Shown here piece by piece: positions 59,816 through 59,903 of a stretch of 64,000 bases of DNA. Under the pieces are notes generated by a model. It ran no database searches. It saw nothing but the letters and a program-made list of their open reading frames with translations, and was not told where the DNA came from. The first letter of the stretch is position 1, and each line of letters begins with the position of its first letter. The position numbers and the translations under genes were made by a program. Origin of the DNA: Escherichia coli (lineage in GTDB: Bacteria; Pseudomonadota; Gammaproteobacteria; Enterobacterales; Enterobacteriaceae); the NCBI RefSeq assembly GCF_003334785.1, contig NZ_QOWV01000001.1; one strand, written 5' to 3'.

Positions 59816-59903
59816 GTTCACTGCCGTACAGGCAGCTTAGAAATTCACAGGTAACATACTCCACCCGCCCACCATGTTCACTGCCGTACAGACAGATAAA
59901 ATG
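59816..59903. CRISPR. Orphan type I-F CRISPR mini-array (2 repeats, 1 spacer)
   Basis: Repeat 1 gttcactgccgtacaggcagcttagaaa (59816-59843) matches the E. coli I-F repeat by recall; 32-bp spacer ttcacaggtaacatactccacccgcccaccat (59844-59875); degenerate terminal repeat gttcactgccgtacagacagataaaatg (59876-59903). No cas genes in the window. Confidence 0.8.

Follow-up and report, generated by a model that had tools for sequence, protein, structure and literature searches.

An orphan type I-F CRISPR mini-array between clpA and serW of Escherichia coli with a single spacer matching cas1f

Genes and features of the clpA-serW interval

The window analysed here is a 64-kb stretch of Escherichia coli DNA. 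In it, a short CRISPR array is located between the terminator of clpA and that of serW (Table 1). The clpA terminator begins 24 nt past the clpA stop codon (59603). An identical locus annotated in RefSeq has these same genes (clpA, serW and infA). The array itself is unannotated by RefSeq/PGAP, and no Rfam small-RNA family scores above threshold at its position. A preliminary description of this DNA had placed two 28-bp repeats, the second degenerate, and a single 32-bp spacer at 59816-59903, between clpA and serW. These coordinates and this anatomy are exact, and the flanking genes are as described.

Table 1. Features of the window around the mini-array
Feature	Position	Strand	Sequence	Basis or remark
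clpA	57312-59603	+		Upstream neighbour
clpA intrinsic terminator, upstream leader boundary	59627-59658	+		Terminator scan: 14-bp stem, 4-nt loop, T-run
CRISPR4 leader, A/T-rich	59659-59815	+		Homologous to leader of active CRISPR4.1 array in I-F-positive strains
Repeat 1, perfect type I-F repeat	59816-59843	+	GTTCACTGCCGTACAGGCAGCTTAGAAA	Rfam CRISPR-DR4 (RF01317) and predicted hairpin
Spacer, single, 32 nt, anti-cas1f	59844-59875	+	TTCACAGGTAACATACTCCACCCGCCCACCAT	Match to cas1f
Repeat 2, degenerate terminal repeat	59876-59903	+	GTTCACTGCCGTACAGACAGATAAAATG	22/28 to consensus; G17A in stem; 3' tail ATAAAATG
serW intrinsic terminator, downstream boundary	59906-59941	-		Terminator scan
serW, tRNA-Ser(GGA)	59947-60034	-		ARAGORN; Rfam tRNA 53.8 bits; RefSeq annotation of identical locus
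infA	60288-60506	-		Far neighbour beyond serW

Repeat 1 is the exact I-F consensus and has the same sequence as the repeats in I-F-positive arrays. It matches the Rfam I-F repeat family CRISPR-DR4 over its full length (1-28) with 50.1 bits (E=1e-10), where the gathering score is 35. The earlier assignment to type I-F, which hinged on agreement with the consensus, therefore holds. Repeat 2 scores 20 bits, under the gathering score. Its identity to repeat 1 is the same as to the consensus, and it retains 19 of the 20 positions of the hairpin core. A degenerate terminal repeat is usual in CRISPR arrays. The start-to-start period is 60 nt with a spacer of 32 nt, and a single period is present. A chance origin is excluded, since none of 100 shuffles gave a match at ≤3 mismatches. 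Searching both strands of the 64-kb window at ≤9 mismatches returned repeats 1 and 2 and no further copy. This absence of a third repeat-like site indicates that the array is not part of a longer one, in agreement with its description as a mini-array.

No I-F cas genes were found in the window either, as the preliminary description had claimed. A tblastn search with all six I-F Cas proteins gave no significant match in the 64 kb, and the sole cas1f-related match was the spacer itself. The site occupied by the cas operon in strains BEN2908 (locus L001) and 504211 (locus L003) is empty here, which makes the array an orphan.

The stretch from clpA to repeat 1 (59604-59815) aligns without large gaps to BEN2908 (L001 14001-14212) and to five other strains. 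About 50 nt just 5' of repeat 1, together with repeat 1, are invariant in the seven sequences compared; upstream of this, the leader diverges between lineages by up to ~15%. A leader promoter had been suggested as a check. The homology to the leaders of active arrays was borne out, but a σ70 promoter was not: a strict consensus scan of the + strand of the leader gave no site at ≥9/12, and the best candidate in a loose scan reached 8/12, with the -10 element GATAAT at 59717-59722. In some chicken isolates the clpA-serW interval is lengthened by ~180 bp of DNA that bears the annotation ‘RtT sRNA’, a repeat-type element inserted in the leader region.

In I-F-positive strains the locus has the order CRISPR4.1, cas1f-cas3f-csy1-csy2-csy3-cas6f, serW, CRISPR4.2 (for example BEN2908, 504211 and ATCC 11775). 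In BEN2908 and 504211 the same leader and first repeat lead into arrays of 8 and 15 repeats, respectively, with the cas operon and serW beyond. BEN2908 has a second complete array of 6 repeats between serW and infA. The earlier statement that I-F arrays and cas genes reside in the clpA-infA interval is correct: in I-F-positive strains it contains the cas operon and both arrays, at the same position and behind the same leader. The active locus and the window array have an identical repeat, homologous leaders (93.8% identity) and the same insertion point behind clpA. The active locus differs in containing cas genes and 7-14 spacers, whereas the window array has one spacer and no cas genes. Its terminal repeats end in TATTCACA or TCTTCAAA, and not in the tail found here. 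It has a second array between serW and infA, where the window has none, and its spacers are directed against mobile elements instead of cas genes. None of 26 spacers in three complete arrays from two I-F-positive strains matches its own cas operon. The serW terminator region is homologous to the cas6f-serW sequence of L003 (94.9% over 39 nt). This homology 3' of repeat 2 places the cas operon of I-F-positive strains precisely at the junction of array and serW terminator. A recent deletion from an extant I-F-positive locus was considered and rejected, because the orphan tail is unlike both I-F-positive terminal repeats.

Additional features were observed around serW and in the I-F-positive loci. 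The serW-infA interval of the window measures 253 bp. Homology to I-F-positive strains covers its first 81 and its last 64 bp, whereas the ~108 bp in the middle (60116-60223) replace ~640 bp of second leader and array in those strains. Within or near it, 60113-60140 resembles 59693-59720 (71%) and 60170-60189 resembles 59639-59658 (85%), a likeness to the leader and terminator on the clpA side. In 504211, IS100 (istA/istB) is located at L003 18784-20585 between serW and the second I-F array, whose start lies in the stretch read. The same IS100 arrangement is found in strain B7A (Almendros et al., 2014; PMC3903273). In BEN2908, csy2 (L001 20680-21603) is an annotated pseudogene with an internal stop, and the I-F system of this strain may be inactive despite its complete arrays.

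The spacer target and related arrays

The target of the spacer is an I-F cas gene, cas1f. Against the BEN2908-type allele (L001 14930-14961, minus strand) the spacer matches at 30 of 32 positions and differs at spacer positions 4 and 6. The allele of strain 504211 (L003 10098-10129) is matched at 29 of 32, with mismatches at positions 4, 6 and 10. The match is antisense, and in both alleles 5'-CC directly precedes the protospacer. This dinucleotide is the type I-F PAM (Shmakov et al., 2023). None of 100 shuffles of the locus produced a match at ≤3 mismatches. Whether the spacer matches an I-F cas gene had been left undecided in the preliminary description; the 30/32 match with its CC PAM answers it.

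A comparison with phage and plasmid collections, also suggested there, revealed no target beyond a partial cas1f match. The best match in the phage collections is 17 nt long, which is at chance level. In the plasmid collections the sole match is partial (22 of 25 aligned bases, spacer positions 8-32) and lies in a cas1f gene on a Vitreoscilla plasmid. Scans for the exact 32-mer, or for CC plus the 32-mer, in IMG/VR, GTDB species representatives and JGI metagenomes returned only other copies of the array. One copy is in the metagenome-assembled genome ‘Proteobacteria bacterium’ JADFJT010000085.1 (L011 1123-1210), a GTDB species representative. Another is in a contig filed as viral in IMG/VR (L012 3934-4021; IMGVR_UViG_2534682060_000012). 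Over the stretches read, both contigs contain E. coli clpA-serW orphan-array sequence, and they are probably E. coli chromosomal DNA that reached these collections through contamination or misclassification.

We also sampled seven other strains with a differing clpA-serW interval and parsed their arrays. These orphan arrays contain one to three spacers each, and six of the spacers are distinct. Every one of the six has a match in cas1f or cas3f with 0-4 mismatches, in line with the earlier statement that spacers of such orphan arrays have been reported to match I-F cas genes. On the closer cas allele every protospacer is flanked by CC; at one protospacer the more divergent allele has TC. The tail of the terminal repeat is common to all sampled orphan arrays.

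The distribution was counted in 5426 complete E. coli genomes, 5424 of which contain the 343-bp clpA-serW interval. The interval of the window is 100% identical to that of K-12 BW25113. The mini-array occurs in some variant in 2338/5426 genomes, at ≥99% identity (K-12 type) in 1423 and at 95-99% (mostly O157:H7 type) in 949. K-12-type arrays are thus found in about a quarter of complete genomes. Anti-cas3f spacers in array context are also widespread: TCGACGG... in 1559 genomes, TTGCCGC... in 676 and GGAACAA... in 521. cas1f is found in 241/5426 genomes. The exact 32-nt K-12-type spacer was found in 1432 genomes, of which no more than 3 may also carry cas1f.

Mini-arrays of the CreA/CreR type (Shmakov et al., 2023; the Acinetobacter I-F CreTA) have a similar layout, with two repeats, one spacer, a degenerate second repeat and a guide directed to the cas locus. 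However, they are located inside the cas operon and have a shortened spacer. Their seed complementarity of ~10-11 nt is to a promoter, and they repress without cleavage. The window array has a full-length 32-nt spacer, its 30/32 match lies in a coding region, and no cas genes are present in the window. A regulatory mini-array of this type was therefore rejected for the window, whose guide would serve interference or priming instead of repression.

A separate element was observed in the cas3f-csy1 gap of I-F-positive E. coli, and is absent from the window. It is a two-repeat pseudo-array antisense to the cas operon, located at L003 14226-14295 (minus strand) with its target near L003 14402; the equivalent in L001 is at 19047-19375. 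It is composed of CACTGCCGTTGGCAGCTTAGAAA, a pseudo-spacer of ~25 nt and GTAAACTGCCGTACAGGCAG. The first 12 nt of the pseudo-spacer agree at 10 of 10 pairing positions with a site that is flanked by CC and lies ~110 nt away. Between the two cas lineages, guide and target change together (TAGAT/TAGAT in L003, TAGAG/TAGAG in L001; T/T versus G/G at position 5). From its sequence, this pseudo-array looks like a CreR/CreA-type regulatory mini-array. Shmakov et al. (2023) described regulatory mini-arrays located between cas3 and cas8f in I-F1 systems; these and the I-F CreTA modules are a known class (PMC10120712, PMC10097628).

Seed mismatch and terminal hairpin

A synthetic 91-nt cas1f fragment with a perfect protospacer was compared with the 5426 complete E. 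coli genomes, and no perfect cas1f protospacer was found in them. Two base differences from the spacer, the same in every gene, are the minimum among the 241 cas1f genes. One of them is the A:C mismatch at position 4, in the seed, which is present in all 241 genomes. The O157:H7-type spacer (TTCACTGG...) differs from cas1f at this position only, which corresponds to a synonymous change, AGT versus AGC, at Ser42. Residue 42 varies among the solved Cas1f homologues, being Ser in E. coli, Glu in Pectobacterium and Asp in Pseudomonas. The K-12-type spacer has an extra change at position 6 relative to the O157:H7 type. In type I-F, every sixth spacer position is unpaired with the target, a rule that is also restated in Shmakov et al. 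(2023). Since position 6 is unpaired, the effective difference to cas1f is the single A:C at seed position 4.

The two repeats differ in their predicted folding. Repeat 1 is predicted to form a hairpin with the canonical 5-bp stem that Cas6f/Csy4 recognizes (-8.6 kcal/mol). In repeat 2, G17A creates a C:A mismatch in the stem, and the predicted hairpin is reduced to -1.4 kcal/mol (z=0.09 versus shuffles). The O157-type terminal repeat keeps the full predicted hairpin. The G17A form, GUUCACUGCCGUACAGACAG, can be set against the ...GGCAG form: comparison of window 59876-59903 with L013 (O157:H7), L008 and L009 gave two orphan terminal-repeat forms, GACAG (K-12, O128:H27 and others; C:A in the stem) and GGCAG (O157:H7, U15A and P4; intact hairpin). 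A comparison of two lineages, K-12 and O157:H7, showed spacer position 6 to be A where the terminal repeat has GACAG, and T where it has GGCAG.

Repeat 2 would supply the 3' hairpin held by Cas6f on the only crRNA of the array, so processing or loading may be impaired by G17A. The seed-4 mismatch, the weakened terminal hairpin and the lack of a clear σ70 promoter by consensus together point to a reduced potency of this allele. We infer that the K-12-type allele probably acts mainly as an adaptation primer or a weakened guard, and not as a strong direct interferer. Put more broadly, it probably works by priming, weakly, or not at all.

A shortened version of the anti-cas1 spacer was observed in two three-spacer orphan arrays (L005 359-386 and L010 361-388). 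It is 28 nt long owing to a 4-nt deletion (TTCACAGGTAACATACTCCACCCACCAT) and has 5-6 mismatches to cas1f in ungapped comparison. It adjoins two well-matching anti-cas3f spacers. Judged by these mismatches, it is probably a dead spacer.

Interpretation and meaning

The element is already known, and most E. coli, K-12 included, carry it at this site. It is the published anti-CRISPR or anti-cas orphan array (Touchon & Rocha, 2010; Almendros et al., 2016). Touchon & Rocha (2010; PMC2886076) found that, in cas-less E. coli, the short array of this repeat type has no spacers other than those that match Cas1, Cas3 and Csy2 genes of its own subtype. Their proposal was an ‘anti-CRISPR’ against invasion by a functional system, and they named the array ‘CRISPR3 anti-CRISPR’. 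Almendros et al. (2014; PMC3903273) termed the locus CRISPR-III and the single array CRISPR4.1-2, and reported at least one such repeat unit in all E. coli. The preliminary description had held that strains without I-F cas genes keep a minimal array, and the array found here is minimal and orphan. According to two reviews from the same group (PMC5972030, PMC8616872), Almendros et al. (2016; Nat Microbiol 1:16081) showed that native orphan arrays are constitutively expressed. The same reviews credit that work with interference against plasmids carrying I-F cas genes, and with primed adaptation. The window array shares with this orphan CRISPR4 (CRISPR4.1-2) anti-cas array its species, clpA-infA locus, repeat, leader, minimal size, absence of I-F cas genes from the locus and CC-flanked cas1f match. 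Nothing essential differs. Our analysis may add allele-level detail only (the seed-4 mismatch in 241 alleles and G17A), and independently reproduces the sequence-level claims of the literature on a much larger genome set.

We therefore interpret the array as an orphan type I-F CRISPR4 (CRISPR4.1-2) mini-array of E. coli lacking cas-F, whose only spacer is an anti-cas spacer against cas1f, with a probability of roughly 0.8. Our own observations comprise the array anatomy and repeat family, the homology of the leader, the PAM-flanked cas1f match, the distribution and the lack of alternative targets. The proposed mechanism draws on published work for transcription and for interference or priming. 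The conserved leader would drive transcription of the array, and the transcript would be inert as long as the cell lacks Cas6f and the Csy proteins. When an I-F cas operon enters, its own Cas6f, Csy1-3 and Cas2/3 would load the resident crRNA. The crRNA would then guide the incoming Cas complex to the CC-flanked protospacer in the incoming cas1f. The invading cas locus would be degraded, or spacers would be acquired from it by priming, or both, and the I-F system could not establish.

The most serious alternative is that the array has no function. It would be a relic of an ancient I-F system that persists only because it is short and harmless and is surrounded by essential or highly conserved genes (clpA, serW and infA), with the cas1f match as a trace of the self-targeting that drove cas loss. 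Self-targeting followed by loss of cas was proposed by Díez-Villaseñor and colleagues, as cited by Touchon & Rocha (2010; PMC2886076). The seed mismatch to every extant cas1f allele, the weakened K-12-type terminal hairpin and the lack of a clear promoter by consensus scan would all fit such a relic, as would the missing RefSeq/PGAP annotation. The deletion variant in L005 and L010 indicates that the spacer can decay. However, every sampled orphan spacer targets a cas1f or cas3f protospacer that is CC-flanked on the closer allele, and nothing else. Touchon & Rocha (2010; PMC2886076) argue that E. coli otherwise loses spacers readily. Repeat 1 and the leader-proximal region are invariant where the upstream leader has diverged. 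The orphan-specific terminal repeat is common to all orphans, which argues against repeated recent deletions, and native orphan arrays have published interference and priming activity. We consider the relic explanation unlikely.

Other roles are far less probable. The array could be an ordinary memory of a phage or plasmid, its likeness to cas1f being incidental, and plasmid genes are indeed matched by many spacers from the pair of I-F arrays of cas-positive strains (PMC2886076). For the window spacer, however, phage matches stay at chance level, the one partial plasmid match is itself to a cas1f gene, and the IMG/VR and GTDB matches are the array itself. With a 30/32 match to cas1f next to the correct PAM, this explanation is barely credible. 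A Cas-independent role of the repeat hairpins, whether in the regulation or termination of clpA or serW transcripts or in a small RNA, would be consistent with the stable hairpin of repeat 1 and with the placement between two terminators. Yet a strong intrinsic terminator outside the array already serves clpA, and another serves serW, and no Rfam small-RNA family was recognized. A structural role also leaves unexplained why the spacers vary between strains and always match cas genes. We regard it as very improbable.

The commonest anti-cas1 spacer and the extant cas1f genes of E. coli may bear the marks of an arms race. All 241 cas1f alleles would then be seed-4 escape alleles, through the synonymous AGC/AGT change at Ser42, and K-12-type arrays would have decayed, through the position 6 change and the broken hairpin, to a guard that at best primes. 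This scenario is tentative and, in our judgement, rather doubtful. If it is true, the I-F operon survives in E. coli solely in the form of escape alleles.

On the anti-cas reading, an array can persist after its cas genes are gone and be turned against them. This helps to explain the rarity of I-F systems in E. coli (241/5426 complete genomes). It also means that K-12-derived hosts expressing E. coli-type I-F cas genes would carry a resident guide against cas1f, one that is seed-mismatched and has a weakened 3' hairpin.
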